Below, piece by piece: positions 23,671 to 44,521 of a DNA stretch of 49,744 nucleotides. The notes under the pieces are model-generated. The model was not told where the DNA came from and did not search any database. It saw nothing but the letters and a program-made list of their open reading frames with translations. Each line of letters starts with the position of its first letter. Position 1 is the stretch's first letter. A program made the position numbers and the translations under genes. Origin of the DNA: an uncultured Gammaproteobacteria bacterium (lineage in GTDB: Bacteria; Patescibacteriota; Patescibacteriia; Magasanikbacterales; UBA922). Location: positions 1 through 49,744 of the forward strand of contig CAYGHM010000004.1 of NCBI GenBank assembly GCA_964349825.1. The letters are read 5' to 3'.

Positions 23671-24366
23671 ATGTCACTGAACGAATTTGAGTCCCAGTTG
23701 ACCAAAGAGCAAAAGACAGGTTTTGTCTTGTTGCTTCTTTTTGCTATCATGACGGTGGGGCTTGGTTTTTTGCAGCTTCGTAATACGATTTATTCTCCAT
23801 TTGTCATTCGTCTTTCGAACAAAGAAAAAACGATTGAAATTCAGGATGATGCAACTCGTCTGCAATCTATCGATACAGATAGAGATGGGTTAAATGATTA
23901 TGACGAAATTACCTTTTACCAAACAAGTGCCTATTTGCCGGACACTGATTCTGATGGAAAAACGGATAAGCAAGAGATAGATGCCAAAACCAATCCACTT
24001 TGTGCGGAAGGAAAAATCTGTGATACGTCAGATCTCCCCGAATCGGATAGCGCCGAAAAAGAATTGGTGGATAAAGCAAGTAAGACACAAACACCGCTTG
24101 ATGTAACTGGTGGTTCTCTCAATAATACCGGGCAAGCGAGTGTCCAGCCAACACAACAAGCGTCTGGAGTGCCGGATGTCAATGCGCTCATAAATGATCC
24201 CAAACAGTTACGAACGTATTTACTCGGGACAGGAAAAATTACCGAACAGCAGCTCTCACAAATTGATGATGCAACCCTCCTTGAAAGTTTTAAGGCAGCA
24301 TATCAGCAGACTGCGGCCCAGTCACCAGGAGCGGTGACCACTTCTACTAAAACGTCCTCACCATAA
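23671..24366 (+). CDS. Membrane-anchored protein with thrombospondin-type-3-like Ca-binding repeats
   Basis: TM helix GFVLLLLFAIMTVGLGFL. DTDRDGLNDYDE and DTDSDGKTDKQE (DxDxDGxxDxxE) at nt 23872-24003. The start was chosen at ATG 23671, downstream of the -10 box. Confidence 0.6.
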   Translation: MSLNEFESQLTKEQKTGFVLLLLFAIMTVGLGFLQLRNTIYSPFVIRLSNKEKTIEIQDDATRLQSIDTDRDGLNDYDEITFYQTSAYLPDTDSDGKTDKQEIDAKTNPLCAEGKICDTSDLPESDSAEKELVDKASKTQTPLDVTGGSLNNTGQASVQPTQQASGVPDVNALINDPKQLRTYLLGTGKITEQQLSQIDDATLLESFKAAYQQTAAQSPGAVTTSTKTSSP

Positions 24367-24370
24367 CGGT

Positions 24371-27300
24371 ATGAATAGGAATTCCTCCCCCAAAAAACAA
24401 CGGCTAGGTATCAGTATATTATTGAGCGTATTTGTCACAGTCCAATTTTTGGGCTTTTTTGCTTTTCCAAGCCAAGTAAAAGCGCAAGGAGCCCCTGTCT
24501 TCGATGCGGCAAACTTTGGACAATTAGTAAAAAACGGAATTGTTGAAGTGTTGGAAGCTTCTGCTATGGGCGCACTTTTGAACGGAGCATCATATTTCAT
24601 GCGAAAAATCGCGTATGATACTGCGAGCTATCTTGCAAATGGAGGAAAAGGGCAATCTGCGCTTGTCTTTAAAAAAGGATGGGGAAGTTATCTTGAAGAT
24701 GTGAGTGGAAATGCGGCGGCATCTGCCATTGATCAATTAGGGAAACCATTTGGATTAGACCTCTGTAAGATGCCAAGCGTTGGTTTTCAAGTTGATTTAC
24801 AGATTGGCTTAAGAAGTTTATATGGAACACCGTCGTTAGATGGTGTGGGTGCTGGCCCTGAACCAAGCTGTAGTTTTCAGAAATTAAAAGAGGGGTGGAA
24901 AGATTGGGATAATCTTGATGTCCAAGGAGAAAAATTGTCCAATGCTTTCGGAGCGTCTCTTACTGTGAGTCAATCTGATTTTGGTATTGCTTTAAATGCG
25001 GTTGAACAGGTGGACCGTTTGGTTGCCAAACAACGTTTTGAGAAGTTGGCTGAACGTGGTGAAGGCGGCGGATTTAAAGCTGTCACTGATTACATTTCTG
25101 GGGATATTAAAACTCCGGCAGAAGTGGTGAAGGAAGAATCAAAAACATTGAGTGGACCAAATCAAACTCAGTTGACCATGAGTCAAATTGCTGGTGTTTA
25201 TGGATCGGGTGCTTTACAGGTATTTTCCATGGCCGGATCAGTATTTCTTAATACCCTTATTTCACAGGGCTTAAATAATCTGTTCACCAAAGGATTGGTC
25301 CCAAATAATAAAGGAACAAGCGCGGTAGTGGATTTTTACGCACAAAGCATACTTAATAATAAAAAAGCAGTTGAAAAAGCATTTAATTATTTATTTACAG
25401 CCGTACCTAAAAAACAGATTACTAAATACGAAGCGCTTGTTGAGCTTGAGGCATGCTCTGATCAACCAGGATTGAATAACTGTGTTATTGATAATAAGCT
25501 ACGTGATCTTATTGCATTGGCAAAACTTGAAAAACCGTTGACGATTCGCGAAGCGATGAATAAAAATTATCTCAATAAAGGATGGCCACTTATTTCCCCA
25601 GCTCGAGACGAAAATGATGATTTTGATTGCCGGAATAAGGGATATTGTTATTCTAATTTGCAAAAATTAAGAAAATTACGCGTATTTCCAATCGGTTTTG
25701 AATTAGCGGCATTACGTTCTGATCCAGATCAGCCATGGACACTTGAACAAGTTGTTAATGGGTTTGAAGATTGTACGATTGATTCAGTTACCGGAAAAGC
25801 AATTCCTGATTCAAAAAAACCATTTTGCCATTTGATTGATCCAAATTGGATTGTTCGTTTGCCGGAAGCTCATTGTGAAAGTAAGGTCTATGGGCCAGTA
25901 CTATTGTCAGCACAGACGGCAGATCGTCGTGAGGAATGTGTGGATATTACCACTTGTATTACCGAAGGACCGAATGGCGAATGTGTTAACGATCAAACAT
26001 ATGCATACTGCACACGGGAAAAGAATATTTGGCGTATTGGCGCAAACAGTTGTTTGCCTCAGTATAATACTTGTAAAAGTTATCTAGATAATAAGGGCAC
26101 AGTTCGTTCTTATCTTTCTCGTACACTTGATTATGGTACTTGTAGCGCCCAGTCTGTTGGTTGTGCCGCATATAGTTTTGCGCAAAATGTAAATGGGTGG
26201 GTGAGTACTCCTAACGTTTCAATTGATAAAAAAATTGCCGGTGATGTGCAAGTTGCCTTCTTTAATAAGAATGTCGCAAATTATTCCTGTGTTCCAGATG
26301 ACGAGGGAACATCAGAATTTTATCAAGTAAAGAAGGAAGGGGATGTATATGTAAAAAATACAGATCCAGAAATTAAGCCGGTTTATCTTAAAAAAGCGCC
26401 AGATTATCTTGGGTGTTATGATATTGATGGTGGAACACCGGGTATTCAGTATCCAAAAAATACTATTGATCTTGATAAACTTCCTCAAAAAGAAGAGTGT
26501 AAACAATTTGCAAGCGCATGTTTGCCAGAAGAAACACAATGTCAATCATTTACCCCAAAGAAGGGCGGCGAACCGATTCCAGGTATTATTGGCGCAAATG
26601 GTTGTGCAGCATCGTGTGTAGGCTATGATACCTTCAAACAAGAGCCAACCCAATTTGAAGTAGCTAAATATCCTTTATATTTCATTCCTGCTAAGGGAGA
26701 GAGTTGTTCATCAGACCACGCTGGATGTACTGAGTTTACCAATTTAGAAGGCGGTGCGAACGGAGAAGAATTGGCCTATTTTAGCGCGATTAAATATTGT
26801 GAAAAACCAACAGGCAGTAATTTAAAGACATATTATTCTTGGGAAGGTGACCAAGAAAAAGGGTATGTCTTAAAAGTGCATAAATTGCGTCCGTTTACCG
26901 CTCAGGATGCGGATTATATCAATCAGCTTCAGGATGTAAATATTTCTGCACAGTTTGTTGCGGGGACACCAGCCTATGCTGATGATAGAAAGCAAGAGCT
27001 TGTTGGGAATGCGGCAGTGTGTAATGAAAAATTATATAATGCCTATATTAATGGAACCAAAGATCAAGAGAAATTTAATGTCGATTGTCGGGCATTCTAT
27101 GATGAAGCAGGACAAGTTTCCTATCGTTTACTTGCAAAAACAATTACCATATCTGAAGATTGCGCGGTACTCCGAAAAACTACATCTGAATTCCATAAAG
27201 ATGACTATATTAAAGATGTAAAAATTTGTACCGATAGAGGTGGTAAATTTGAAAATAATTTCTGTATGCGCTGTACAGGCGGCGGATTCTTTAAAGACAA

Positions 27301-30300
27301 TAGTTGTGTCTATAGCGCTATTGTCGGTGAAGAGGGTTCTACTGGCTGTCCTGCAGAAGCAAATGGTTGTCGTGAATATACGGGAAACTCTGGAAATAAT
27401 ACGATCCCTGTTCTTACCAATGACTTTGAAGGGACTACCGCTCTTGCTGGCTGGTCTGTGGATGGCGGTGGAGATGTAAAAGTTGCTGCTGAGTCCATTC
27501 AAGTAGGATTACACTCCCTACAAGTTACCGGTGAGACGACAAAACGTGAATTGCCATCTGCTGTGACTGAAGACGGTTGGTATGAGCTTAGTTTTTGGGT
27601 GCGTGGTACGCCTCAAGCACTTACCATTTCTTTTGGACCGAGTACGGAAGCGTCACCGGCAGTAGAATTTACCAAAAATCCACAAACCAATGTATCAACT
27701 CCAATTTCTATTAATAATAGCTGGAGATTGTACAGACTCGGCCCTGTTTATTTGCCAAAAGGTGCTGCAAAAAATAATATTTCATTTAGTCGAAGCGGAA
27801 ATACCGCATACTTCTTGGATTCACTTGAGCTTCGTCAGGTAACTGGGGACGACAATTTATTCCGTATCAAAGATTCTTGGAAACAAACTGTTCCGTTTGG
27901 CGCTGATGTGGTGAATGCTGATGTACCGCTTATTTGCGATCCTGACCCAACGGATGATCTTCCAGGATTTGCTTTGGGTTGTTCTGCATATACAGATGGA
28001 AATGGACAAGATAAATTTGCTACGGGATTTGAACAATTATGTCGTCCAGAAGCAGTAGGCTGCCAACCATTGATTGATACATATAATACCGTCGAAGGAA
28101 CTGATGAAGAAAAAGCACATGTATATAATGCTATTTGTGCTGTTCCTGCCGATGTATCAACGGTGACGCCATGTAAGATTGTGGTTGCAGGAAAAGAATA
28201 TGGTAATGGCTGTTCAATTTTGATTGGGGAAAAGAGCTGTGCGGTAAAAGATTTTGCTGCCACAACCGGAGAGTTGCAGGCATTAAAACCATACATTACC
28301 GCTTCAACGATCGTTATTCCTGCAGATACGCTCGCGTCTGATCCGGTATTTCTAACGAATAGAGCGAACTTCCGTCGCAGTCCACAAGTATTGGGATGTC
28401 AAAAAGTAGCGCGTGAAAATCAAAAGATTCCAGGTGTTCAGACATCCGCGTATACATTTGAAAAAGAACAATTTATAAAGAATAATCCTGCGAATTATGG
28501 CACGATTCTTTGTGATGCAACCCAGGTAGGTTGTAGTGAATTTTCGGACGACAATACAAAATCGTATTTCAAAGATCCGCTTTTGAGTGGAAATGCATTA
28601 TGTGAATATCACGAGATAAAAGTGGGATTGGATACATTCTCAGGTTGGTTTAAATCTGGTGTTGGAGAATGTGCGAATAATCCTGCACAATTGTGTCGTG
28701 AAGATACTTCGGATACAGATTGCGGAAAAGGCATTGCATGTAATAAAGTAGGCGAATTGCAGTGTTACAACAATTATATTGATCAAGCGGGACAATATGG
28801 TATTTGGTCAAATAAATCTAATAACTATACCGGTCTTGTAGGTATTTGTGGTGAAGATCAGAATCAATGTAATGAAATCGTTGATCCACAAGATGTTTCC
28901 CTTCAGAATCCAAAAGGAAAACCGTATTATGTCATTTTTGATGACGAGGTAAAAGACCGTCAGGCAAAATGTTCTGGTGTTAGTCTTGATGAGGGTTGTA
29001 TCCTTTTTGATAAAACCGAAGATCCGAACAAAAAATATTCTAGTGAATTAACGTATAAGGAAAGTCGAAAGAACGGAAATAAAGTGGTAGCGCCAAAAAA
29101 TGCAACCGGACAATTTTTGGGTGATACAAATATTGTTTTAAAAGTAGATCGCGATCGACAGTGTAGTGAATGGCTATCATGTAGTAATTCGATGGTAATA
29201 AAAGATAAAGATACAGGAGAAAATCAGAGAATTTGTGCTGATTATCGTGCTTGTGTGAAAGATGATAAAGGTAAATGTTTATCTTGGAAACAAAATACCC
29301 ATAATGATGCGTATCTTTCCGAGGAAGATTATATTTCGCGAGATACAGATTGGTATGCAAATGAATATGTTGGATACTCTCTCTTGAATAAGTATCAGGT
29401 GCATTATTATTCCTATATTCGAGTATCGAGTACTGCATACGCCGTGTATAAGATGGATGAATCATCATTTGATGATTATCCAGATCTATCTTGTTTGAAG
29501 ACGGATGATACACCAAAAGATGATTGGATTGAATGCGGCTTTAGTCAAGATAAAAACGGAAATGGACAGGGGCGTTGCTATAAGGGTGCGTGTATTTATC
29601 CGTTGACGGGTAAATTCCCAGATAAAATGTCAGCAAGTAAAGATAATTTTGAACAAGCATTGCAAGTATTGGGACCTGAACGGTATCAGTGTAAAGCATT
29701 TCCTGAACCAACAAGTCCGTATCCTCGTACTATTGTAAAGAAATTTGAAACGAGACCTTCTGATTTTGGCCCAAGAGATATTTTCCTAACAAAAGCAACA
29801 GGTTTTGGTGAGGCAAACGTATGTCAAAATGGAGATTGTTCATGTAAATACACTAAGGTAGAGTATAAAGGAATATCAGAAGTAGATTATTGGGATGTCG
29901 GAAAAAATATACAAGACATGGGTGTTTGTCAGGGTGGAGACAAAGACGGAAGATTCTGTAAAACAAATACTGATTGCGAAGGTGGAAACGGTATATTTAG
30001 TGGTAGCACCTGTGCAAAAATAAGCAAAATAGAAACACGAGAAGGATTACATGGTCTTTGTTTGGAAGAAGACAGAAGCCGTTTGATTAACGGGGCGGAT
30101 CAACAGTCATGTCTTACTTGGTTGCCGGTTGATTCAGGATTTAATGGAGTGGATAATTATAATTTTGTTCCAGAATCTGGGTACTATCCTTCTTTGGATT
30201 CCTCAAAAGACGGTGGTGAACTTTATTGTGTTGCAGGAGCAACAGGAAGAGACAGAACTCAGGATCCAGCACATCAAGTACCTCATAATGTACCGAGTTC

Positions 30301-32917: not shown

Positions 32918-32924
32918 TGAAATG

Positions 32925-32953
32925 AAAACCGTCGGTATGTCCGGCGGTTTTTT
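32925..32953 (+). terminator. Intrinsic terminator after the giant gene
   Basis: Stem ACCGTCGG/CCGGCGGT (one G-U pair) with loop TATGT, followed by TTTTTT. Confidence 0.7.
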
Positions 32954-32958
32954 GTACC

Positions 32959-33060: not shown

Positions 33061-33065
33061 AATAC

Positions 33066-33096: not shown

Positions 33097-33188
33097 GACG
33101 CATCAATATTGAATATATAATTCAATCTTCATGCGTCACTCCTGTTCGTCCTAGGAAAGGGCGAACAGGGGACGCGTGGGAGAGGGGG

Positions 33189-34149: not shown

Positions 34150-37100
34150 ATGCAAACGCGCATTGCTCGTAATTTGAGCTTGCTGAAACAATATATTAAA
34201 GCGGCGTTGCCACAAACAAAAAAACACTGGATAGTTAGTGTGTCTTTTGCTATCGTACTTTTTGGCTTGTGTTTGTTTATTACAAATACCGTACACGCAG
34301 AAGAAGCAGCCGCGGCAGCCGCTCCAGCATCTGAACCTGGAACCATGGCAAATATTGGTACGTATATTTTGACAATGATTACCAAGGCCATTTTGATGAT
34401 TGCGCAGATTTGTATCAAGATGACTATTTTTGCACTGGAATTTTTCGTGAAGCTGGCGAAGTATAATGGATATGTGGATGCACCAATCGTGATTCTCGGA
34501 TGGACCATGATTCGTGATATAGCGAATATGTTTTTTGTGGTTGTTCTCTTGGTCATCGCATTTGGAACTATCTTGGGACTTGAACAGTATGAATGGAAAA
34601 AGACCATGGTCAATTTTATTCTTGCAGCAATTTTTATTAACTTTAGTAAATTGATTGCTGGATTGATTATCGACGTGGCCCATGTGTTCACTATGACATT
34701 TACCAATGCTATTGCCGCAACGGCGGGTGGAAATATTATCAACATGTTCCATTTGAGCGATATTGTGTCGATTGTGTCAGGTGGTTTCCAAACAGGCGAT
34801 CCGACTCCGGATATCGTACTTGAAGTTTTTGGTGGTGCAGTGATGGCGCTTGTGTTTGCCGTTTTAGCCATGGTTACGATGGGGGCATATCTTATTGTCA
34901 TGGTTGCTCGAATCGTGGTGTTGTGGGCACTTATTATTTTGTCACCTCTTGCATATATTTTGAATGTTATTCCGCAAACAAAGAGTTATGCGGACACATG
35001 GTGGAGTGAGTTTGGAAAACACGTCATGGTGGCTCCAATTATGGTGTTCTTTTTATGGCTCGGGTTTGCTACTTTGGGAAGTGGAAGTTTTGTACAAAAT
35101 GATTTAGGTATAGCCTTTGGATCAGATGCGACGGCAACAGATAAAGCGCTCGGTCTTCCTGCGGCATCTATTGAGCGACCAAAAGTGAGTGTTTCTAATG
35201 TCAGTACATGGGAAAATATGGCGAATTTTATTTTGGCCATTGCTTTCTTGTGGGTTGGTATTGAACAAGTACAAAAAACGGGTGTCCGTGGTGGAGAAAT
35301 GCTTTCTCATGCAAAAAGTTTTGCTACTAAAGCGGCACTTATTGGTAGTGGATATGCTCTTGGTCGTTGGTTGACCGGCGAAGCAGGGGACCTTGGTGGA
35401 AAGGGATTAAAACAAGTCGGATATCGTATTCCTCTTGTTGGTGGACGTGCATGGCAGACCCGTGGATACAATGCGCTTGAAAAGTATGGTCGTGCGCAGG
35501 AATGGATAGATAATAAAGCAAAAGGATTGGATTCCGGTTATCGTGATTTGCAAAAAGGTAAATTGACAGCAAAATATGAGGGAGGATCTACTGCGCAATA
35601 CAGCAGCTTTAATCCAGCAAATATTCGTGCTGTTGCAGGACGTTTTGCTGCATCTGTTATTGAAACAGGCGGACGTAAAGATAAAATTCGTGATGATTAT
35701 AAAGAAGCGTATGAACGCCGCATGACAGTCGTGGAAGAAAGTTATTCTACGAGTGGATTGCCCGGCGGATCTTTGAAGCAGGAAGTCACTGGTCAATTGA
35801 AATTTGTCGAAGCTTTGGGTAAGGCAAAATCAGAGGCAAAAGTCAAAGATATTATGGGCCTGATTTTGGCAAACAACGATTCTTTTAAGGCATATGCCAA
35901 GCCAGCCATGGTTGCTGAAGAAAAAGCGCGTGTATCTGATCCAAAAGAAAAAATTGAAAGAGGAAAACGGTTGGGCTCTATGCGTAGTTTCGGCGACGGT
36001 CTGAAAACAGATGAAAAAGCTGCTAAGCTTGAAATAGAGTCACAAAAACGAGAGGAAATTATTAAAGAAAAACAGAATATATTGATGGGAAAGACTGATG
36101 GAAAATTTACTAATACAAATCCTTTAGCTGGTGTTCTCGCTGACACCAAAGCTGCGGCGCAATTACAACAGGCAATCGCCAAAGGATTTGAAGAGATCCA
36201 TCTTGATGAGGCGCTTGGAAGTTTATTCCAGGATATCTCCAATAATTCATTAGCGCAGGTGTATCTTGCGATGCAACAGCAAAAAGTAGAAGCGGTTTCA
36301 AAGAAAGAACGATATGAAAAAGAAAGGGAGAAAACCGTCAAAGGAAAAGAGCCAGGAATTTCTCGTGCTGAAGAAATTGCAAAACATAAAGCTATTACTG
36401 AAAATTTACAGAAAACGATTTCTCGTGCTTCAGATATTCAGCTTGCAACCGCCCGTGCCGTACAATATAAACAGAATGGCCAATTTTTGAAAGCAGACCA
36501 AACCTTGCAGAGTGTATATCAAAGACATGAAGAAGAGGACAGTAAAGAAATTTCTGGTTTGAACCGTCAGCAGAGAAAAGACGTGGCAAGTCAATTGCTC
36601 ACTTCATTGGGATCAACAACTGACCCCGAAGAAAAAGCCCAGATTACCCGTGATTTGACACGTTTGGTTACTGTAAGCGCAAATAAAGGTGCTGATGACT
36701 TTAAATCTTTGATGGAGAGTGCTTTGCCAGAAATTTATAATGGCGACACGGTTGATTTAAAAGAAGAAGATGCGAGTAAACATTTTTTGGAAATGGTTAC
36801 AGGAAAGAAAATTTCTTCAGAAGCGGAATACAACGACGCGTTTAAAGCATTTAATGTCTCATTTGAAGCAGGTAAGCCAAGAGATGCTGCAACTGGATTG
36901 ATCACTCCACAAGGAGAGAAAGCTGCAAAATCAGAACAGCAGGCAGTCCTTGCATCTTTATCCAATGCATTTTGGGCTCAGGGTGAAAGCGGTGGTCTTA
37001 ATTTTTCTGCTGCCGTAGGATCGAATATTGAGTCTGATCCGGATAAGCCTATATTAAAGAGAAAAGTTTTTGAAATTCGTCCCTCTTATAGTATTTCTCG

Positions 37101-37569
37101 TGATGAAAACGAGGATCGAAAAGGAAATATCGATGCATTGTCCAATGAATATCTGGTAACCCGTGATGTTATGTCGATCATCGACATGGTAAACTCACAA
37201 ATGAAAGCAGATCCATCAGGAAAAGTTGATAAGAAGGGTAAAAGAGTATATCAAGATAGAAAAGTGACCGAAGTTACATCAGATCAAATGTCCCGTCTTA
37301 AATCCTGGCTTACAAGCTTTAGTGATACACGAGAAGTGGCTCAGATCAACCGTGCTTTTTCAGTGTCAACACAGGATAAAAATTTCGAAGATGGTGCAAA
37401 AAAACAAATGGCAAAATTATTTAAGGAATTACAGGATGATTTGAAAGGCAAAGGTTTAAGTTCTGTTTATGCAAAAATTATGCAGACGCAGTTTTCTGAT
37501 TTGTATAATGACGCAATTGTTCAAGCAGAAATGGGTAGTGATTGGAAAAAATTAGAAGATTTAAAATAA
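34150..37569 (+). CDS. Polytopic VirB6/TrbL-like membrane protein with a roughly 700-aa charged, coiled-coil-like C-terminal extension
   Basis: Start moved to ATG 34150 (MQTRIARNL). Signal-like helix plus an AEEAAAAAAPASE spacer, then at least 6 hydrophobic helices over about 400 aa in a TrbL/VirB6-type arrangement. The rest is a Lys/Glu/Ala-rich hydrophilic tail. Confidence 0.55.
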   Translation: MQTRIARNLSLLKQYIKAALPQTKKHWIVSVSFAIVLFGLCLFITNTVHAEEAAAAAAPASEPGTMANIGTYILTMITKAILMIAQICIKMTIFALEFFVKLAKYNGYVDAPIVILGWTMIRDIANMFFVVVLLVIAFGTILGLEQYEWKKTMVNFILAAIFINFSKLIAGLIIDVAHVFTMTFTNAIAATAGGNIINMFHLSDIVSIVSGGFQTGDPTPDIVLEVFGGAVMALVFAVLAMVTMGAYLIVMVARIVVLWALIILSPLAYILNVIPQTKSYADTWWSEFGKHVMVAPIMVFFLWLGFATLGSGSFVQNDLGIAFGSDATATDKALGLPAASIERPKVSVSNVSTWENMANFILAIAFLWVGIEQVQKTGVRGGEMLSHAKSFATKAALIGSGYALGRWLTGEAGDLGGKGLKQVGYRIPLVGGRAWQTRGYNALEKYGRAQEWIDNKAKGLDSGYRDLQKGKLTAKYEGGSTAQYSSFNPANIRAVAGRFAASVIETGGRKDKIRDDYKEAYERRMTVVEESYSTSGLPGGSLKQEVTGQLKFVEALGKAKSEAKVKDIMGLILANNDSFKAYAKPAMVAEEKARVSDPKEKIERGKRLGSMRSFGDGLKTDEKAAKLEIESQKREEIIKEKQNILMGKTDGKFTNTNPLAGVLADTKAAAQLQQAIAKGFEEIHLDEALGSLFQDISNNSLAQVYLAMQQQKVEAVSKKERYEKEREKTVKGKEPGISRAEEIAKHKAITENLQKTISRASDIQLATARAVQYKQNGQFLKADQTLQSVYQRHEEEDSKEISGLNRQQRKDVASQLLTSLGSTTDPEEKAQITRDLTRLVTVSANKGADDFKSLMESALPEIYNGDTVDLKEEDASKHFLEMVTGKKISSEAEYNDAFKAFNVSFEAGKPRDAATGLITPQGEKAAKSEQQAVLASLSNAFWAQGESGGLNFSAAVGSNIESDPDKPILKRKVFEIRPSYSISRDENEDRKGNIDALSNEYLVTRDVMSIIDMVNSQMKADPSGKVDKKGKRVYQDRKVTEVTSDQMSRLKSWLTSFSDTREVAQINRAFSVSTQDKNFEDGAKKQMAKLFKELQDDLKGKGLSSVYAKIMQTQFSDLYNDAIVQAEMGSDWKKLEDLK

Positions 37570-37611
37570 TTTGGTAAGTATTGTCTATTCTCTTTAATAA
37601 AAGATGCGCGT

Positions 37612-38577
37612 ATGGCTTCCTTTAAGCCAACAATTCTCACTCAAGAACAAACCGCTCAGCTGCGTGAATTGTTCTTTATCACATATTCCGCAGACAGTGA
37701 AGTTCTTTTTGACGCATTCAAAGAAATGGATGAATTTTTTAGCGCCCCTCAAGGGGGAAGCTATATTGAAACATATCGAAATACATTTTGGGAATGGTAT
37801 GTATTTGCCAGCTGGAAGTTATTGTATCAATTACCGAATGATAAAGTTCTTCAGATTGTTCAAAATCAAATTCCTGATGCAATTCGACAAGGGGAAAATG
37901 TGGAATTTCGACTGCTTACCTATATGGCAGCACACGTGCCTGATGTAGAACCGTTGATGGCATTTTATCGTACGCTGAAAAAGAATATTCTTGAATCTAC
38001 TGCAGTGCTTGGCAAAGAAAATAATGTCGCAGTATCATTGTCTCAAATTGTTGTTGATTTGAATAAAATAAATCAAAATTTTGATGCGCTGAAGTATTCT
38101 GAATTTAAAATGAGAGTGGGGAAAATTCTTTCTCAATCACAATTCGAACATGAATATTTGTTTACTCCGCCAGCAAAAATACTGAGTAACTTATTGAATT
38201 TACTCAATTTTTTGTCTGCAACCGATGAAACTACTATTTTTGTCGCGGTTGATGCGCATACTAAACCCGTTTTGTATAAGAAATTAGAACGAGGTGACTT
38301 TGCTCGACAAGCACAAGATGTTAATACAGAATCACCCGTAGAAAAGTTTGGTCCCCCAGTGACGCTTCCGCCAGAAAAATTCCTGGAGGTAAAAGAATTT
38401 TTACTCTCCAAATTCCCTCAAGATGAATCCGGACAATTTCAAGATTTTGATGGAGTAATGTCGCTTTTGGATGATACGGCCCTTGCGATGGGGGATGAAC
38501 GAATTAGAGATTTGTACATGTTCAACGAAGACAGTGGTGAGTTTGAATGGAATCAACAGTTATTGGCGATGGCATAA
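37612..38577 (+). CDS. Hypothetical cytoplasmic protein (321 aa) in the T4SS-like operon
   Basis: Uninterrupted ORF 42 nt after the previous stop. No TM helix and no recognised motif. Confidence 0.55.
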   Translation: MASFKPTILTQEQTAQLRELFFITYSADSEVLFDAFKEMDEFFSAPQGGSYIETYRNTFWEWYVFASWKLLYQLPNDKVLQIVQNQIPDAIRQGENVEFRLLTYMAAHVPDVEPLMAFYRTLKKNILESTAVLGKENNVAVSLSQIVVDLNKINQNFDALKYSEFKMRVGKILSQSQFEHEYLFTPPAKILSNLLNLLNFLSATDETTIFVAVDAHTKPVLYKKLERGDFARQAQDVNTESPVEKFGPPVTLPPEKFLEVKEFLLSKFPQDESGQFQDFDGVMSLLDDTALAMGDERIRDLYMFNEDSGEFEWNQQLLAMA

Positions 38578-38587
38578 TTTTTTTCCT

Positions 38588-39856: not shown

Positions 39857-39857
39857 T

Positions 39858-39983
39858 ATACGTCCGAATCTACGAATTTGCCCTAATCTACAAATTCTAC
39901 CAATTTACGAATTGTCGACACTGTTGGTATCTGTAGGTTCGTAGAATTCGTAGGTTAGGAAAGATTTGTAGATTCGGACGTAT
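39858..39983. repeat. 126-nt imperfect long hairpin whose arms are built from CTACnAAT/TACGAAT units
   Basis: ATACGTCCGAATCTAC (39858-73) pairs perfectly with GTAGATTCGGACGTAT (39968-83). Pairing continues for about 50 positions, and 6 of the 10 non-Watson-Crick positions I tallied are G-U compatible. Confidence 0.6.
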
Positions 39984-39993
39984 TATCTTCCGT

Positions 39994-40431
39994 ATGCAAC
40001 AGTTTGTCGTTCCACAATTTATTGATGTTGAAGATAAAATTTTTGGTCCGGTTACTACGCGGCAGTTTTTGATTTTGCTTGTCGGAAGTCTGACTATTTT
40101 TTTGGGATTTCGTTTTGGTGATTTCATGACCTTTGTTCTGGTGCTTATTTTTGTCGGAGGCGGATCACTTATTCTTGCCTTCGTGAAGATTAATGGACAA
40201 AATTTTCACATGTTTTTATTGAATATTTTTCAAACACTCAAAAAACCAAGTTTGCGCATTTGGAATAAGTCCTATACTGATCAGGATTTGGATTATTTGC
40301 GAAAGCGTGATTCAGAAATCATTATTACTGAAAAGCAAGAACGGAAAGCCGTGCGACATGAACATATCCGTGATTTATCCCTTATTGTAAATACAGGTGG
40401 GTACTATAAGCCAGAGGATGATCAATGGTAA
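39994..40431 (+). CDS. PrgI-family (VirB3-like) small membrane protein
   Basis: N-terminal VVPQFIDVEDKIFGPVTTRQFLILLVGSL followed by two TM helices. This matches the PrgI/VirB3-like pattern of Gram-positive-type T4SS. Confidence 0.65.
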   Translation: MQQFVVPQFIDVEDKIFGPVTTRQFLILLVGSLTIFLGFRFGDFMTFVLVLIFVGGGSLILAFVKINGQNFHMFLLNIFQTLKKPSLRIWNKSYTDQDLDYLRKRDSEIIITEKQERKAVRHEHIRDLSLIVNTGGYYKPEDDQW

Positions 40432-40440
40432 CCCCACACG

Positions 40441-40484
40441 GCACGCCGACGTCGGCGTGCTCGACCTCCCCTTGGTAGGGGAGG
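40441..40484. repeat. Two adjacent GC-rich hairpins, the first a perfect 20-bp palindrome
   Basis: GCACGCCGAC|GTCGGCGTGC (40441-60). CCTCCCC-TTGGTA-GGGGAGG (40465-84). No T-tract follows. Confidence 0.6.
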
Positions 40485-40539
40485 TAACAAGGTGAAAATA
40501 AGGGTATTATAATTTAGCAATTACAAACAGGTTTATTCG

Positions 40540-40548
40540 TGCTATAAT
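40540..40548 (+). promoter_or_regulatory. Extended -10 promoter (TGCTATAAT), internal to the T4SS-like locus
   Basis: Perfect TGnTATAAT 27 nt upstream of ATG 40575. A GGAG lies 8 nt before the ATG. Confidence 0.5.
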
Positions 40549-40574
40549 GCACAAAACGCTATCGGAGAAGAACT

Positions 40575-41267
40575 ATGGATAAAAAGATGCAACAAAAGAA
40601 AAATCAGAAAGCAAAACGCCCGTCCACCCAGGCGCATACTCCTATTGCCGAGATTAAGGATGGTGTTGTTGTATTGAAAGATGGCAGCATGAGAAAAGTT
40701 CTTTTAACATCGAGTATTAATTTTGCGTTAAAATCAGAAGATGAGCAGAACGCATTGATTTCTTCGTATGTAGGTTTTTTAAATTCTATTGATTTTCCAC
40801 TGCAGATTGTTGCACAGTCGAGACGGCTCCAGATTCAGCCGTATCTTGATAAATTGATTGCTATTGAAAAAGAACAGCCAAATGAATTATTGCGTGTGCA
40901 AATCGCAGATTACAGATCCTTTATTCAGGAGTTGGTTGATATTGGACAGATCATGACGAAGCGATTTTATGTTGTGGTGCCGTATGATCCGATGTCCCAT
41001 AAACAAAAAGGTTTTTTTGCTCGCCTCAAAGAAATTATTGCTCCGGCAATAACGATCCGATTAAAAGAAGATCGATTCCAACAGAAAAAAGCTGATTTGG
41101 ATATGCGTGTTCGACAAGTAGGCGGCGGACTCGGAAGCATGGGGCTTCAAGTTGTTGAGCTCAATACTCAGGCGCTTATTGAATTATTTTATACCACCTA
41201 TAATCCTGATATTTCTTTTGCAGAAAGTCTTGGCAAGCTAGAAGATATTCAAATTGAAAGCCTGTAG
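40575..41267 (+). CDS. Hypothetical protein resembling a stand-alone VirB4 N-terminal domain (230 aa)
   Basis: IAEIKDGVVVLKDGSMRKVLLTSSINFALKSEDEQNALISSYVGFLNSIDFPLQIV follows the same pattern as the N-domain of VirB4-type ATPases. It has no Walker motifs. Confidence 0.4.
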   Translation: MDKKMQQKKNQKAKRPSTQAHTPIAEIKDGVVVLKDGSMRKVLLTSSINFALKSEDEQNALISSYVGFLNSIDFPLQIVAQSRRLQIQPYLDKLIAIEKEQPNELLRVQIADYRSFIQELVDIGQIMTKRFYVVVPYDPMSHKQKGFFARLKEIIAPAITIRLKEDRFQQKKADLDMRVRQVGGGLGSMGLQVVELNTQALIELFYTTYNPDISFAESLGKLEDIQIESL

Positions 41268-41287
41268 CTAGCATATCGTAATATATT

Positions 41288-43165
41288 ATGCCGTTTAAAC
41301 CTATATCATCTAAATCAAATTCGCTGAAAACCGGTATTCTTCAGGATAAGCAAAAAAAAGGATACGATTCTCAACCAGATTTGATTAGCCTTGAAGAGGA
41401 AAAAGTATATCGCCAAGGAACCGTGGCTATCCGAGATCTTGTTGCGCCATCAGCTATGCGTATCGAATCAAACTATATTCAGCTTGGTGATGTTTTTTTG
41501 CGGACTATTTACGTGATTACCTATCCACGATATATTTCTGTCGGTTGGAGTTCTCCTATTTTGAACTTGAATTTGACCATGGATGTGGCCATGTTTTTTT
41601 ATCCGATTGAATCGCCGATTATTTTAAAACAATTAAAGAAAAAGGTAGGTGCGCTTCAAGCACAATTGTCATCAGATGCTGAAAAAGGCGCTCCGCGTGA
41701 TCCATTGCGTGAAACCGCACTCCGAGATATTGAACAATTGCGAGATGATTTGACTCAAGGGATTGAGCATTTTTTCCAATTTGGTTTTTATGTGACGCTC
41801 TATTCAAAAGATAAAATTGAATTGGATCGTATCACACAGGATATTGAAAATATTTTTGGATCAAAACTTATTTATAGCAAAAACGTTTTGTATCAAGCAG
41901 AACAAGGATTTACCTCTACGTTGCCGCTGGCGATTGACGAACTTATGGTATCGTTCAATATGAATTCTTCGCCAATCGCGTCTTCATTCCCATTCATGTC
42001 CTCGGAACTCACGAGTGATGATGGTGTGCTATATGGTATTAATCGTCATAATAATAGCTTGATTTTATTTGATCGTTTTTCTTTGCAAAATGCGAATGCC
42101 GTGGTATTTGCATCGTCTGGTGCAGGTAAATCGTATGCGGTAAAATTGGAAGTGCTGCGTAGTCTTATGCTCGGTGTTGATGTTATTATTATCGATCCGG
42201 AAATGGAGTATATTCATTTAACGGAAGCGGTGGGAGGAACATTCGTCAATATTTCACTTGCATCAGAAAGTAAGGTTAATCCATTTGATTTGCCTCGTCC
42301 GGTCGGGCAACAGGTATCGACTGAAGACGTCATTCGAAGCGCGGTTATTACCATTAAAGGGTTGCTGCGTATTATGCTTGGTACTGTTTCGGCGCAGGAA
42401 GATTCCACACTGGATCGAGCGCTTCTCGAAACATATGCGAAAAAAGATATTACACCATCATCAGATCTCGCGACCGTTGAGCCACCGATTATTCAGGATT
42501 TGGTGGATGTCTTAGAAGGAATGGATGGAGCAGAGACGTTGGTATTAAAATTAAAAAAATATACGGAAGGAACATTTTCTGGATTGTTCAATGCGCCGAC
42601 AAATGTGCAGATGAATAATCAGTTGGTTGTCTTTAGTGTTCGTGATTTGGAAGATGAGTTGCGTCCGCTTGCGATTTACTCGCTGGTCAATTATATTTGG
42701 AATATTGTTCGCAGTGAACGAAAGAAGCGTGTCCTCGTGATTGATGAAGCTTGGTGGCTTATGCAGCATGAAGACAGTGCAAAATTTATCTTTGCATTGG
42801 TAAAACGTTGTCGAAAATATTACTTGGGTGTTACCACTATTACTCAAGATGTAAACGACTTTTTACGTTCGCAATACGGTCAAGCCATTGTAACAAACTC
42901 TTCTTTGCAATTGCTTCTTCGTCAATCTCCCGCGTCAATTGATATGATTCAGAAAGTATTCATGCTTACTGAAGGAGAAAAATATTTACTTCTTGAAAGT
43001 GGTGTCGGTGAAGGAATATTTTTTGCAGGATTGAAGCATGCGGCGATCAAAGTAATTGCATCATATACGGAAGATCAGCTTATCACCTCAGATCCGAAGC
43101 AGTTATTGGAAATTGAAAAAGCAAAAAAAGAATTTGAACAGCAGATGATACGAGGAAAACAATAA
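41288..43165 (+). CDS. virB4: VirB4-family T4SS ATPase (625 aa)
   Basis: N-domain pattern LVAPSAMRIESNYIQLGDVFLRTIYVITYPRYISVGW. Walker A FASSGAGKSYAVK (about nt 42113-42136). Walker B RVLVIDEAWWLM (about nt 42731-42754). ITQDV motif. Confidence 0.85.
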   Translation: MPFKPISSKSNSLKTGILQDKQKKGYDSQPDLISLEEEKVYRQGTVAIRDLVAPSAMRIESNYIQLGDVFLRTIYVITYPRYISVGWSSPILNLNLTMDVAMFFYPIESPIILKQLKKKVGALQAQLSSDAEKGAPRDPLRETALRDIEQLRDDLTQGIEHFFQFGFYVTLYSKDKIELDRITQDIENIFGSKLIYSKNVLYQAEQGFTSTLPLAIDELMVSFNMNSSPIASSFPFMSSELTSDDGVLYGINRHNNSLILFDRFSLQNANAVVFASSGAGKSYAVKLEVLRSLMLGVDVIIIDPEMEYIHLTEAVGGTFVNISLASESKVNPFDLPRPVGQQVSTEDVIRSAVITIKGLLRIMLGTVSAQEDSTLDRALLETYAKKDITPSSDLATVEPPIIQDLVDVLEGMDGAETLVLKLKKYTEGTFSGLFNAPTNVQMNNQLVVFSVRDLEDELRPLAIYSLVNYIWNIVRSERKKRVLVIDEAWWLMQHEDSAKFIFALVKRCRKYYLGVTTITQDVNDFLRSQYGQAIVTNSSLQLLLRQSPASIDMIQKVFMLTEGEKYLLLESGVGEGIFFAGLKHAAIKVIASYTEDQLITSDPKQLLEIEKAKKEFEQQMIRGKQ

Positions 43166-43203
43166 TTTCTTGCCTACATAATTTTTTCCATTCTTTTATT
43201 CCT

Positions 43204-43794
43204 ATGATTGACCTACGCACCCGACTTCTTCTTGCCATCGGTGGAGCAGTACTTCTCGTTGCTCTTATTATCGGCGGTATTTTTATTGGAAAAAAAGTGA
43301 ATAATGGAACAGAGGAAATTGTCACGGAAACACCGGCAACAGAGGAAATAAGTGAGGGGCAACCAATTGCGGTTGACGAAACACCGGTCATCGATATTCC
43401 TATTACTCCTGCACCGATACCACAAACAACAGAAGAAAAGCAGGCTTTGTATGTCCGACAACTTTCTCGTGATTTCATCGAACGGTTTTTGAGTTTTTCC
43501 AATAAAAATAATGATAAGCACTTGGTTGATGTTGAATCATCCGTTACCGCAACCATGTTGGAGTGGGTAAAATTACAGACAACATCAGGTATGTCTGGAA
43601 CTGTATCTCAGAATACAAAAGTTATCTCAACATCACTGAATAGTATAGAAGGGGATAGCGCTTCAGTATCCATCGGTGTTCAACAAATCATAAAAGATGA
43701 TAGCGGAACGAAAGCGGTGTATAAAAATGGCCGTGTAGAATTGTTGCGCATTGGCGGCGTATGGAAAATAGACGGATTATTTTGGGAAGAATAA
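43204..43794 (+). CDS. Bitopic membrane protein; VirB8/PrgL-like candidate (196 aa)
   Basis: TM helix LLLAIGGAVLLVALIIGGIFIG, a linker, then a C-terminal domain ending VYKNGRVELLRIGGVWKIDGLFWEE, which suggests an NTF2-like fold. The position after VirB4 fits. The assignment is inference only. Confidence 0.4.
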   Translation: MIDLRTRLLLAIGGAVLLVALIIGGIFIGKKVNNGTEEIVTETPATEEISEGQPIAVDETPVIDIPITPAPIPQTTEEKQALYVRQLSRDFIERFLSFSNKNNDKHLVDVESSVTATMLEWVKLQTTSGMSGTVSQNTKVISTSLNSIEGDSASVSIGVQQIIKDDSGTKAVYKNGRVELLRIGGVWKIDGLFWEE

Positions 43795-43813
43795 ATTATT
43801 TTAATAGGAGCAT

Positions 43814-44521
43814 ATGAGGAGGGGGTTATTACGTTTTTTTAGTATTATCCAAGAATATCTTTTTCCGCTTTTTTGTCTTTCATGCGAAAAAGAAGGGGAT
43901 TGGGTATGTGTAGATTGTTTTTCGCGTCGGATAATTATTTCCGGCGTTTTTTATTGCCCGATTTGTCATATGGTGACAGAAGGTGGTGCGGCTTGTGATG
44001 CGTGTCGTCATAGCACGTATATAACACGACATACTGCACTCATGCCTTACCATGAAAAAGCATTTATTGCAGAATTACTTCACACGATAAAATATAACTT
44101 TAGTGAAAGCGCATTCGGGGTTTTGGATTGTTGTGTGACATTATTTTTTAAGGATCGTATTGATATACTGTCGGGTATAGATTTAATTGTGCCTGTACCC
44201 CTCCACGCTCGACGTTTCGCTGAACGGGGTTTTAATCAGGCTGAGAAGATTGCATCACATGTCGCAACCTGTACTGCCATACCTATACATACGGGCGGAT
44301 TATCCCGACCAAGAAAAACATTGCAGCAGGCATTATTATCAAAGAGCGAGCGAGAAAAAAATGTCGAAAATGCCTTTGTCGCACGCCCTGTATATAAAGG
44401 AAAAACCATCCTTTTGGTCGATGATGTCTATACCACCGGAAGTACCATGCAAGCCTGTGCCAAAGCCTTGCTCGCCGCCGGGGCAAAAGAGGTTCGAGGG
44501 TTCAGTATTGCACGAGGTTGA
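43814..44521 (+). CDS. comFC: ComF-family protein (ComFC-type phosphoribosyltransferase-fold competence protein)
   Basis: N-terminal Cys4-type zinc finger (CLSCEKEG..CVDC, CPICH..CDAC), PVPLHARRFAERGFNQAE, and PRT motif ILLVDDVYTTGST. AGGAG lies 5 nt before the ATG. Confidence 0.85.
   Translation: MRRGLLRFFSIIQEYLFPLFCLSCEKEGDWVCVDCFSRRIIISGVFYCPICHMVTEGGAACDACRHSTYITRHTALMPYHEKAFIAELLHTIKYNFSESAFGVLDCCVTLFFKDRIDILSGIDLIVPVPLHARRFAERGFNQAEKIASHVATCTAIPIHTGGLSRPRKTLQQALLSKSEREKNVENAFVARPVYKGKTILLVDDVYTTGSTMQACAKALLAAGAKEVRGFSIARG

Follow-up and report, generated by a model that had tools for sequence, protein, structure and literature searches.

A conserved type IV secretion gene block that ends with comFC in a Magasanikbacteria-like genome

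We analyzed a 49,744-nucleotide stretch of DNA (the window), which is an entire contig from a Magasanikbacteria-like genome of the class ABY1. Positions 34150-44521 contain genes for parts of a type IV secretion system (T4SS), followed by comFC; in this genome, two tRNA genes mark where the block ends downstream:

34150..37569, + strand: extended VirB6/TrbL-like polytopic membrane protein, 1139 aa (by its TM pattern and the TrbL matches of its orthologues)
37612..38577, + strand: u321, a soluble protein of 321 aa with no TM segment
38588..39856, + strand: u422, a soluble protein of 422 aa at a conserved position before PrgI
39994..40431, + strand: PrgI/VirB3-like small membrane protein, 145 aa, two TM segments (Pfam PrgI)
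40575..41267, + strand: TrsD-like protein, 230 aa, equivalent to the N-terminal domain of VirB4 but with a gene of its own (NCBIfam)
41288..43165, + strand: VirB4-family ATPase, 625 aa, with Walker A GAGKS and Walker B VLVIDEAW (NCBIfam and Pfam)
43204..43794, + strand: VirB8-like bitopic protein, 196 aa (AlphaFold2 and Foldseek)
43814..44521, + strand: ComFC, with a ComF-family zinc ribbon and a phosphoribosyltransferase-like domain; last gene of the conserved block
44608..44954, + strand: two tRNA-Ser genes (TGA and GCT; ARAGORN and Rfam)

Every gene in the block is on the + strand, and the intergenic gaps are 10-143 nt. In order, these are 42 nt (VirB6-like to u321), 10 nt (u321 to u422), 137 nt (u422 to PrgI), 143 nt (PrgI to TrsD-like), 20 nt (TrsD-like to VirB4), 38 nt (VirB4 to VirB8-like), and 19 nt (VirB8-like to ComFC). 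The ORF coordinates agree with an initial annotation of the region, made from the sequence alone, in boundaries, gene order, common strand, and tight spacing; it had comFC starting 20 nt past the VirB8-position gene. A hairpin and terminator scan found no terminator-like site of note within 34150-44521, and an 18-bp terminator-like hairpin lies at 44802-44841, between the two tRNA-Ser genes. ComFC and the T4SS genes form one conserved block, which is probably co-transcribed. It lies among housekeeping genes, with glycolysis genes and ksgA on its upstream side and tRNA-Ser and hsp20 on its downstream side. The GC content of the window is uniform (about 0.40), with no compositional island.

The initial annotation had named most of these components, and profile and structure searches sustain its assignments of PrgI, VirB6, and VirB8, as well as both VirB4 parts. 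The PrgI-like protein exceeds the gathering score of Pfam PrgI (E = 1.2e-7, 32.7 bits versus a cutoff of 27). VirB4 matches NCBIfam's conju_CD1110 over profile positions 176-728 (E = 2.9e-100, 336.6 bits versus a cutoff of 325), along with Pfam's P-loop_TraG (8e-26) and AAA_10. It has 8,000 homologs; the best 120 are all at least 79% identical, and those with named sources are from Magasanikbacteria or Patescibacteria. The TrsD-like protein aligns to CD1110 positions 11-105 and to VirB4_CagE positions 4-179 (NCBIfam). It also matches VirB4_plasma (7e-8) and TrsD/TraD (6e-7), under their curated cutoffs, and its orthologs match Pfam's TraC-like family.

The VirB6-like protein has six TM-like segments, all within aa 27-306, and a charged C-terminal tail of 689 aa (aa 451-1139; 32% D/E/K/R), close to the tail of roughly 700 aa noted before. 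The copy in the window has no match in Pfam and no sequence match in the PDB; among its orthologs, 13 of 46 match Pfam's TrbL (best E = 1.2e-5), and the one in locus L082 matches TrbL_3 weakly. The VirB8-like protein was modeled with an N-terminal TM helix, a disordered linker, and an NTF2-like domain (pLDDT 85-97 in the domain; helices at 4-29 and 76-130 and four strands in 133-194). In the PDB, Foldseek matches this model to the VirB8 domain of PrgL (7aed, 6e-5), TcpC (3ub1), OrfG (8s7l), TraH (5aiw), CagV (6iqt, TMt 0.70), and a Rickettsia VirB8 (4o3v); the generic NTF2 proteins ARC6 and the CaMKII hub are also among the matches. The orthologs have weak matches to SnoaL_4, VirB8, and NTF2_YvbJ. 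The inner-membrane translocon set is present: VirB6-like, PrgI/VirB3, a VirB4 split into TrsD-like protein and ATPase, and a VirB8-fold protein. The remaining two proteins are lineage-specific and without matches, u321 in Pfam or NCBIfam and u422 in Pfam or the PDB.

We scanned the long ORFs of the window, 36 on the + strand, and 2 ORFs on the minus strand with Pfam and found no relaxase, coupling protein (T4CP), VirB11, or integrase. The annotated lack of the first three across 50 kb stands for the window. Nor did we find in the window a candidate effector, or a pilin, adhesin, or cell-wall hydrolase attributable to the block.

We compared the locus across the best 80 of the 576 GTDB species that have a relative of this VirB4; these 80 are Magasanik-, Uhr-, and Falkowbacteria. 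VirB4 is the most conserved gene of the neighborhood (70-83% identity); identities of the adjacent genes do not exceed 24-61%. Almost all of the 80 loci share the order VirB6-(x)-u422-PrgI-TrsD-VirB4-VirB8-ComFC. The VirB6-like gene opens the block in 59 loci, the PrgI-like gene is present in 77 of 80 (median identity 57%), and the TrsD-like gene in 79 of 80 (median identity 61%). u422 is found in 61-73 of the 80 loci, invariably adjoining PrgI on the upstream side; its C-terminal ~110 aa are conserved, and a homolog holds the same position in the cluster of a Kerfeldbacteria relative. Homologs of u321 occupy its position in 22 of 80 loci, and other ORFs are there in the rest, so u321 appears to be lineage-restricted. 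The genes past ComFC and ahead of VirB6 vary widely. Because the outer flanks vary and the block is constant, the rearrangement breakpoints fall outside ComFC.

The identity of VirB4, together with synteny from VirB6 to ComFC in nearly all 80 species, argues for a vertically inherited core system rather than an integrative conjugative element (ICE). An ordinary ICE or its remnant, whose relaxase, T4CP, and oriT would lie just beyond the window, is very improbable. It is true that the best model for VirB4 is a conjugative family (CD1110), that one relative (L073) has a VirD4-like T4CP gene directly upstream of VirB6, and that the contig ends with the window, leaving the flanks out of view. But 80 species share both the block and its housekeeping surroundings, VirB4 diverges like a core gene, and there is neither an integrase nor a compositional island. 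L073 is the only one of the 80 loci with a T4CP-like gene within 10 kb of the block; the other flanking P-loop ORFs that we checked in the relatives are not T4CPs. Also, a survey of Patescibacteria found just 109 relaxase homologs, in 103 of 3,035 genomes, and reported that inter-class transfer is rare (PMC12102498). We conclude that 34150-44521 is almost certainly a chromosomal, vertically inherited T4SS of the Patescibacteria clade, with the gene order that we saw in relatives labeled Magasanik-, Uhr-, and Falkowbacteria. The earlier reading against a conjugation system is supported by the housekeeping context, uniform GC, order conserved in 80 species, comFC adjacency in 69 of 73 loci (which the initial annotation had itself named as a test), and the sustained VirB6 and VirB8 assignments. 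Its claim that a coupling ATPase is lacking holds for the window but not genome-wide: of the 3,035 Patescibacteria genomes surveyed, 2,918 have VirD4-like homologs, in most cases at a large distance from virB4 (PMC12102498). This genome probably encodes a VirD4-like T4CP elsewhere.

Upstream of the block are three more genes:

23671..24366, + strand: membrane-anchored, TSP3_bac-like protein, 231 aa, one N-terminal TM segment
24371..32917, + strand: giant Cys-rich protein, secreted or anchored, 2848 aa, one N-terminal hydrophobic segment
33189..33668, - strand: lipoprotein-like ORF, 159 aa, with a hydrophobic N-terminus and then ...LAIC|GC

The initial annotation placed a giant secreted protein ahead of the cluster. 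It is indeed upstream, but it is not contiguous: 1,232 nt, containing an ORF on the opposite strand, intervene. The giant protein has 100 Cys, many of them invariant among its homologs, and no match in Pfam. It has 337 homologs; the 120 listed are 2,260-3,295 aa long, are annotated as hypothetical, and, where the source is named, are mostly from Magasanikbacteria. Conservation covers aa 1-1950 and 2400-2848, and aa 2000-2400 are variable. The AlphaFold2 model of aa 36-560 has low confidence (pLDDT 51), and Foldseek found no matches for it. The 231-aa gene stops 4 nt ahead of the giant gene, and its thrombospondin-type-3 repeat is weak (TSP3_bac, E = 0.002, under the cutoff). In L081, L082, and L083, ksgA and the giant homolog flank a protein of 204-230 aa whose TSP3 match is weak or faint. 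The giant homolog adjoins the T4SS in L082, L083, L085, and 14 loci found with tblastn, but not in L081. The giant protein is part of a conserved ksgA–TSP3–giant module that is separate from the T4SS.

The 159-aa ORF is the sole minus-strand gene and is divergent from the T4SS genes. Its GC content is 0.57, versus ~0.40 for the window, and it has no match in Pfam. All nine relatives examined have a minus-strand ORF of 168-278 aa at the equivalent position (GC 0.45-0.65, versus 0.37-0.44 for the locus). The ORF in the window has no homolog among the ORFs of these nine relatives, and the N-termini appear to be unrelated. This hypervariable lipoprotein-like gene stands between the giant module and the T4SS. 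The TSP3-like, giant, and lipoprotein genes are a neighboring cell-surface set, outside the T4SS operon.

ComFC is a competence protein that binds single-stranded DNA. The assignment is clear from TIGR00201 (comF, 1.6e-27), GntX (1.2e-25), Pfam's Pribosyltran (7e-10), and DZR_2 (a double zinc ribbon). As the initial annotation would predict, its gene directly follows the VirB8-like gene, in the same orientation, in 69 of 73 species; these are related and do not count as independent events. The gap is mostly under 30 nt. comFC is displaced in L011 and L065, and in the Kerfeldbacteria relative, the adjacency is absent and a 244-aa membrane protein is at the position of comFC. The adjacency is limited to part of ABY1. 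RecG and RadA come after ComFC in at least 8 loci.

All of this has precedent: that the T4SS, which is nearly universal in ultra-small CPR/Patescibacteria, lacks a relaxase and is linked to comF, and the idea of import, were published in 2023-2025. Quiñonero-Coronel et al. 2025 (Microb Genom; PMC12102498) reported that comF, recG, and radA co-localize with the T4SS in ABY1 and proposed import. The earlier remark that the role of VirB4 and PrgI genes in CPR genomes is unsettled accords with this literature, where import is offered as a hypothesis.

The best overall explanation, which we hold to be somewhat better than an even bet, is that an exapted Patescibacteria T4SS brings nucleic acid into the cell and passes it to ComFC. 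A VirB4 hexamer would be held at the single membrane by PrgI and the TrsD-like protein, and VirB6 and VirB8 would form a conduit through membrane and wall. This machine, exapted from conjugation, would move a macromolecule at contact with a host cell; these reduced-genome bacteria presumably depend on a host. The block ends with ComFC, and recG and radA are next in some related lineages, so nucleic acid, inward, would be the likeliest cargo in this lineage. ComFC would take up the incoming nucleic acid on the cytoplasmic side. Both direction and cargo are our inference.

Uptake is the part of the initial annotation's proposal (uptake or host contact rather than conjugation) that fares less well. 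In S. epibionticum, the only system studied by experiment, epibiotic growth requires the T4SS but can do without comEC, comF, and dprA (Wang et al. 2023, Cell; PMC10633639). At least in Saccharibacteria, therefore, the conserved essential role of this machine is something other than Com-dependent uptake of DNA. Wang et al. proposed that the missing recognizable coupling and relaxase proteins point to protein export or another role (PMC10633639). There is a substantial minority chance that the same T4SS works outward: it would either export proteins or effectors (or DNA), or assemble a structure, on the surface or like a pilus, with which the cell attaches to and manipulates its host. ComFC would then be a co-regulated or historically linked neighbor with an ordinary role in ComEC-dependent transformation. 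That T4SS pili may connect to the host as a conduit has been suggested in a FEMS review and in a 2026 preprint; Kerfeldbacteria and several Uhr- and Falkowbacteria-like loci have T4SS_pilin-domain proteins and DsbA close to the cluster; the Kerfeldbacteria block does without comFC; and cell-surface genes (the giant protein, the lipoprotein, and an M23 peptidase) adjoin the cluster. Against the outward reading, we found no candidate effector or pilin in the window. Retention of ComFC in the block, across so many species and with very short gaps while the flanks vary, exceeds what we would expect from passive synteny, and recG and radA are co-located too (PMC12102498).

We consider it unlikely that the block is a degenerate T4SS that transports no macromolecule and serves as an envelope or host-contact scaffold, for adhesion or for organizing the wall or membrane. 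The recognizable components are inner-membrane only, no function is known for the conserved partners u321 and u422 or for the long tail of VirB6, and the block has no substrate-recruiting T4CP. However, both Walker motifs of VirB4 are intact and it is the top-conserved gene, which implies selection on ATPase activity. To our knowledge, every characterized system with VirB4 translocates something or assembles a pilus.

Among known systems, we compared the block with the archaeal Ced system (CedA/CedB) of Sulfolobales, whose VirB4/HerA-like ATPase imports DNA between cells. Against the CedB model, our VirB4 gives a match over part of the P-loop region (E = 2e-12, residues 448-525, 46 bits versus a cutoff of 700). 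This is only the generic ATPase core, and we identified no CedA-like component. In Helicobacter pylori, ComB, which acts with ComEC/ComFC, is a VirB-type machine that imports DNA and has neither relaxase nor T4CP, and ComFC handles single-stranded DNA at the inner membrane. The initial annotation drew on ComB as a functional analogy, and we do not claim membership: ComB belongs to the diderm MPF_T type and has a VirB7/9/10 outer-membrane core, which is absent here, and its VirB4 lineage differs from the one here.

Our best explanation includes derivation from monoderm MPF_FATA conjugation machinery. The block shares with MPF_FATA systems the CD1110-family VirB4 model, the TrsD-like protein, and PrgI, and its VirB8-like NTF2 protein structurally resembles PrgL, TraH, TcpC, and OrfG. 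There is likewise no outer-membrane core and no VirB11, which monoderm-type T4SSs normally lack. Unlike them, the block has no relaxase, T4CP, oriT, VirB1-type hydrolase, or PrgB-type adhesin; it is inherited vertically rather than carried on a mobile element; and its VirB6 (1139 aa) far exceeds the ~300 residues of MPF_FATA VirB6 proteins.

The closest relatives are the Patescibacteria T4SSs, whose VirB4 proteins form a monophyletic clade nested in MPF_FATA, and in which TrsD, PrgI, and VirB6 are widespread (PMC12102498). Compared with these systems (S. epibionticum SEML1_0006-0019 and the 3,035-genome survey), we see no peptidase or lysozyme directly 3' of virB4, the cluster is not seen beside dnaA, VirB6 is of an extended type with a ~690-aa tail, and the giant Cys-rich neighbor is confined to the Magasanikbacteria lineage. 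Saccharibacteria have an essential array of VirB2-like pilins, whereas these 50 kb contain no VirB2-like gene or array. In other respects they agree: both are chromosomal, without an associated relaxase, and encode a TrsD-like N-domain protein apart from VirB4, as well as PrgI/VirB3 and VirB6, with ksgA nearby. Co-localized comF, and a VirB8 of the kind detected mainly in ABY1 (PMC12102498), are further likenesses.

The window is an entire contig (49.7 kb). Nearly all of its genes are on the + strand, and its GC content is about 0.40, staying within 0.37-0.46 throughout, so there is no compositional island. The initial annotation had described a run of tightly spaced, same-strand genes at 34150-44521, and our measurements agree: the intergenic gaps are, in order, 42, 10, 137, 143, 20, 38, and 19 nt. 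Promoter and terminator scans of 32500-45200 gave counts that were not clearly above those from shuffled sequence (42 vs. 32 ± 4.6 and 13 vs. 10 ± 3.3, respectively), so these scans do not yield an operon map.

Features of the window around the T4SS-like block, in order. Percentages are median identities across 80 related loci.
Upstream: housekeeping genes (tsf, gap, pgk, eno, two tandem iPGM genes, ksgA) and genes for several large surface-type proteins
23671-24366: TSP3-like membrane protein
24371-32917, + strand: giant protein
33189-33668, - strand: lipoprotein-like ORF
34150-37569, + strand: VirB6-like protein (38%, N-terminal region)
Between the VirB6-like gene and prgI, + strand: u321 and u422, soluble proteins of 321 aa and 422 aa (u422, 27%)
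39994-40431, + strand: PrgI/VirB3 (57%)
40575-41267, + strand: TrsD-like protein, 230 aa (61%)
41288-43165, + strand: VirB4 ATPase (75%)
43204-43794, + strand: VirB8-like protein, 196 aa (28%)
Ending at 44521, + strand: ComFC (37%)
Downstream: two tRNA-Ser genes, hsp20, and a VanW-domain gene

We searched one genome per GTDB species for relatives of VirB4; at least 576 species have one. The best 80, which are related to each other and are labeled as Magasanik-, Uhr-, or Falkowbacteria, have VirB4 proteins that are 70-83% identical to the one in the window. With hardly an exception, these loci share one gene order: VirB6, one to three variable ORFs, u422, PrgI, TrsD-like protein, VirB4, VirB8-like protein, and ComFC. 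VirB4 is the most conserved gene of the neighborhood, so it behaves as a core gene, unlike a mobile one. The initial annotation had asked if the linkage to comFC is conserved, and it is: of the 73 loci whose sequence extends far enough, 69 have comFC directly downstream in the same orientation, mostly after a very short gap. (It is displaced in L011 and L065, two of the related loci.) Gene content before VirB6 and beyond ComFC varies widely while ComFC is kept, which implies that the conserved block ends at comFC. In at least eight loci, RecG and RadA are encoded behind ComFC. Synteny in 80 species and the housekeeping flanks indicate that the block is chromosomal and, as judged from gene order, vertically inherited.

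The flanks of the block have features of their own. At 44521-45817, behind comFC, an 18-bp hairpin separates the two tRNA-Ser genes. Beyond them, GC content is low (0.366) in a stretch that encodes a 241-aa protein without a family; among the 80 related loci, we found no convincing homolog of it, just one weak match of 67 aa (in L055). This stretch may be a small variable islet. On the other side, 15594-17159 and 17239-18819 are tandem paralogs that both encode cofactor-independent phosphoglycerate mutase (iPGM). This duplication is also present in the relative L083, where a 23S_rRNA_IVP-type gene lies between the copies. Further upstream, two small paralogous ORFs (9354-9563, 69 aa, and 11113-11328, 71 aa) have the common motif ...ADPK+K+Q.L... 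and each precedes a large, highly charged protein (9570-11078, 502 aa, and 11338-13290, 650 aa) that has no Pfam family. The ORF pairs at 9354-13290 look like a duplicated two-gene unit.

The block includes a complete set of inner-membrane T4SS translocon components that is vertically inherited, with comFC inside it. The ATPase scores above the curated NCBIfam cutoff for CD1110, an MPF_FATA-type family of VirB4-like conjugal ATPases and the best curated model for this protein (E = 2.9e-100). It aligns to profile positions 176-728 only. The 230-aa protein encoded before it, whose gene ends 20 nt 5' of virB4 and is found in 79 of the 80 loci, aligns with the N-terminal parts of four VirB4 models and matches the TrsD/TraD family (NCBIfam, 6e-7). 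This implies that VirB4 is split into two proteins, as had been guessed from the sequence. Similarly, PrgI had been recognized correctly: it scores above the Pfam gathering threshold and has two transmembrane segments. We found 8,000 database homologs of VirB4; the best 120 of these are at least 79% identical, and the named ones among those 120 are from Magasanikbacteria or Patescibacteria. VirB4 proteins from Patescibacteria form a monophyletic clade nested in MPF_FATA (PMC12102498). Identity and the profile match, rather than a tree, are strongly consistent with placing the VirB4 from the window in this clade.

The VirB6-like protein has six TM-like segments, followed by a tail of 689 aa in which 32% of the residues are charged. 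It has no Pfam match itself, and a profile search of PDB sequences gave no meaningful match. Among its orthologs, 13 of 46 match TrbL in Pfam, and one has a weak precomputed match to TrbL_3. The proposed VirB6/TrbL-like identity therefore holds up transitively, via the orthologs and the transmembrane segments, and we consider this protein a putative VirB6. It fits the “extended VirB6” type of a 2025 FEMS review. For u422, a profile search against PDB sequences gave no meaningful match, and Pfam gave nothing consistent across 37 orthologs.

The protein in the VirB8 position has one N-terminal transmembrane helix. Its AlphaFold2 model, built on an alignment of nine sequences, contains a confident NTF2-like domain. 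Foldseek neighbors of the model include PrgL, TcpC, OrfG, TraH, CagV, VirB8 from Rickettsia, and VirB8 from R388 (E = 6e-5 to 6e-4). The NTF2 fold is generic, as ARC6 and the CaMKII hub score equally with the VirB8 proteins, and a profile search of PDB sequences gave no meaningful match, so sequence homology to VirB8 was not seen. Fold, topology, and position together are thus the basis of the assignment. The predicted structure supports a VirB8-family bitopic component, in line with the original proposal.

ComFC matches DZR_2 (zinc ribbons) and Pribosyltran (a PRTase-like domain) in Pfam. Its match to TIGR00201 (E = 1.6e-27) is under the curated cutoff of 233 bits. The translation includes the motifs CLSC...CVDC and LLVDDVYTTGST. 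By these motifs and domains, it is clearly a ComF-family protein, with one or more Cys4 zinc ribbons at the N-terminus and a C-terminal PRTase-like domain with a PRPP-loop motif.

The initial annotation had stated that no relaxase or coupling ATPase was present. Within the 50-kb window this stands: Pfam gave neither a relaxase nor a coupling protein, VirB11, or integrase for 36 long ORFs on the + strand and two on the - strand, and NCBIfam also gave no relaxase (MOB) among the ORFs scanned. The statement does not extend to whole genomes, since VirD4-like proteins are usual elsewhere in Patescibacteria: homologs are found in 2,918 of 3,035 genomes, rarely near virB4 (PMC12102498). Among the 80 loci, a T4CP-like gene is present in one, L073, from a Falkowbacteria-like relative whose record is mislabeled as Methylomirabilis. 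The gene (L073:2607-4220) is directly 5' of the VirB6-like gene and encodes a 537-aa protein with matches to TrwB_AAD_bind (1.7e-11) and T4SS-DNA_transf. A tblastn search of the window with this protein gave no match, and the ORFs scanned in the window include no VirD4 or TcpA.

We considered if the block could be part of an integrative conjugative element. The ORFs scanned in the window include no relaxase, T4CP, or integrase, its GC content is uniform, and the chromosomal context is the same in the relatives. Synteny effectively excludes such an element, and the earlier view that this is not an ordinary conjugative system was correct.

We also looked for other T4SS parts. No VirB2-like pilin is apparent: no intergenic region contains a small ORF with two transmembrane segments, and tblastn with a T4SS_pilin protein from Kerfeldbacteria gave no match in the window. 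In Kerfeldbacteria (L084/L085:10624-14241), the genes behind that of the VirB8-like protein encode, in order, a membrane protein (244 aa), a further protein (413 aa), a DsbA-like thioredoxin, the T4SS_pilin (PF18895) protein, which has 297 aa and a Cys-rich tail, RadA, and RecG. Homologs with the pilin domain, often paired, are found 7-10 kb 3' of virB4 in six Uhr-/Falkowbacteria-like loci (L058, L062, L067, L069, L070, and L080). Two genes 5' of the giant gene, 19530-22574 encodes a protein of 1014 aa whose N-terminal part is an M23 peptidase domain. In relatives, such peptidases are found repeatedly around the cluster, in varying positions (L020, L049, L069, L072, and L081), and M23-containing VirB1 candidates were noted in a 2025 paper (PMC12102498). 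The M23 protein could be a candidate cell-wall hydrolase of the T4SS; nothing ties its gene to the block.

The giant protein had been described as preceding the T4SS. It is indeed the upstream neighbor, but it is not in the same operon: the spacer between its gene and VirB6 is 1,232 nt and holds the opposite-strand lipoprotein-like ORF. The giant protein (2848 aa) contains 100 cysteines and a hydrophobic segment at the N-terminus; Pfam gave no known domain. Its family has 337 members. The 120 listed range from 2,260 to 3,295 aa, and most of those with a name are from Magasanikbacteria. Many of the cysteines are invariant, and aa 2000-2400 are variable. The giant gene belongs to a conserved trio (22666-32917) with ksgA and the TSP3-like membrane protein (~200-230 aa). 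The trio is also present in three relatives from Magasanikbacteria (L081, L082, and L083), with giant proteins of 2,869-3,121 aa. The T4SS usually follows the trio (in L082, L083, L085, and 14 of the 80 loci). It does not do so in L081, which implies that the trio is a separate module. ksgA is common near the T4SS of Patescibacteria (PMC12102498).

A VirB5/TrbJ-like domain at the N-terminus of the giant protein is not supported. The idea came from its “PVFDAAN..Q” start. There is no Pfam match, and the AlphaFold2 model of aa 36-560 has low confidence (pLDDT 51; confident at aa ~375-505 only) and no Foldseek match in the PDB below E = 3. A non-coding RNA in the GC-rich spacer (32918-34149) is likewise unsupported, as Rfam yields just the two tRNAs across the window.

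A lipoprotein-like ORF occupies the same slot, also on the opposite strand, in all nine relatives examined (L023:1953-2630, L026:3037-3543, L027:2632-3156, L029:3041-3619, L030:2680-3210, L036:1930-2493, L038:2277-2888, L042:2901-3548, and L043:1117-1953). The one from the window has no homolog among the ORFs of these relatives. Their N-termini look unrelated, and several are acidic with DSDTD-type repeats. These ORFs are GC-rich (0.45-0.65, and 0.57 in the window, vs. 0.37-0.44 for the loci). This is a positionally conserved but hypervariable surface gene. It might encode a host-specificity factor or an accessory lipoprotein.

Much of the diversity of uncultured bacteria belongs to the Patescibacteria, which seem to live at the expense of host cells. 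What is at stake is what their near-universal T4SS, which is essential in the one species tested (PMC10633639), transports. Quiñonero-Coronel et al. (2025, Microb Genom, PMC12102498) surveyed 3,035 Patescibacteria genomes and found VirB4 in 2,417. TrsD was its most frequent partner, PrgI and VirB6 were widespread, and VirB8 was almost solely from class ABY1; just 109 relaxase homologs were found, in 103 of the 3,035 genomes. Their supplementary table lists Magasanikbacteria as ABY1 and VirB4-positive, and they proposed import of host DNA or other macromolecules. The system, its missing relaxase, the co-location of comF, and the import hypothesis are already published; the window is a further example, with numbers. 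What we add is numbers for the end of the block at comFC, a structure-based assignment of an ABY1 protein to VirB8, the distinction between the giant-protein module and the T4SS, and the positionally conserved, hypervariable, GC-rich lipoprotein gene between them. Many public MAG records that contain this cluster, which is typical of Patescibacteria, have the title “uncultured Gammaproteobacteria bacterium” (L002, L004, L005, and others) and one “Candidatus Methylomirabilis sp.”; these labels are evidently wrong.

How might the system work? The VirB4 ATPase would be tethered to the membrane by PrgI and the TrsD-like protein, VirB6 and VirB8 would form a conduit, and the T4SS would move a macromolecule at host contact. 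Given the linkage to ComFC (and to recG/radA), inward-moving nucleic acid would be the single most likely cargo in this lineage. The tight linkage to ComFC, kept in 69 of 73 species with the conserved block stopping right at comFC, is the clearest hint from the genomes that the cargo in ABY1 could be nucleic acid. The step to this cargo is weakened by two observations. First, the T4SS of Saccharibacteria, which is Gram-positive-like and lacks recognizable coupling or relaxase proteins, is essential for epibiotic growth, while the transformation genes comEC, comF, and dprA are not required (Wang et al. 2023, Cell, PMC10633639). Second, the Kerfeldbacteria cluster has the 244-aa membrane protein instead of ComFC in the slot behind VirB8. 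The initial reading as an uptake or host-contact apparatus is supported in part: the rejection of conjugation stands, by synteny, and uptake is weakened. Protein export, or a role as a pilus or in contact, is a serious rival to nucleic acid import.

A more far-reaching proposal is that the VirB6-to-ComFC block of Magasanik-, Uhr-, and Falkowbacteria may be a dedicated monoderm nucleic-acid importer, with ComFC handling the substrate in the cytoplasm and the giant protein and lipoprotein providing host-specific contact. We think that this is rather unlikely to be right. If it is, host DNA would be what the CPR T4SS of this lineage imports. Unlike the ComB-type T4SS for DNA uptake, which has an outer-membrane core of VirB7, VirB9, and VirB10, the window has no VirB9 or VirB10 domains by Pfam. 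In function, the proposed importer would resemble ComB or Ced, with ComFC in place of a VirD4-type coupling protein.
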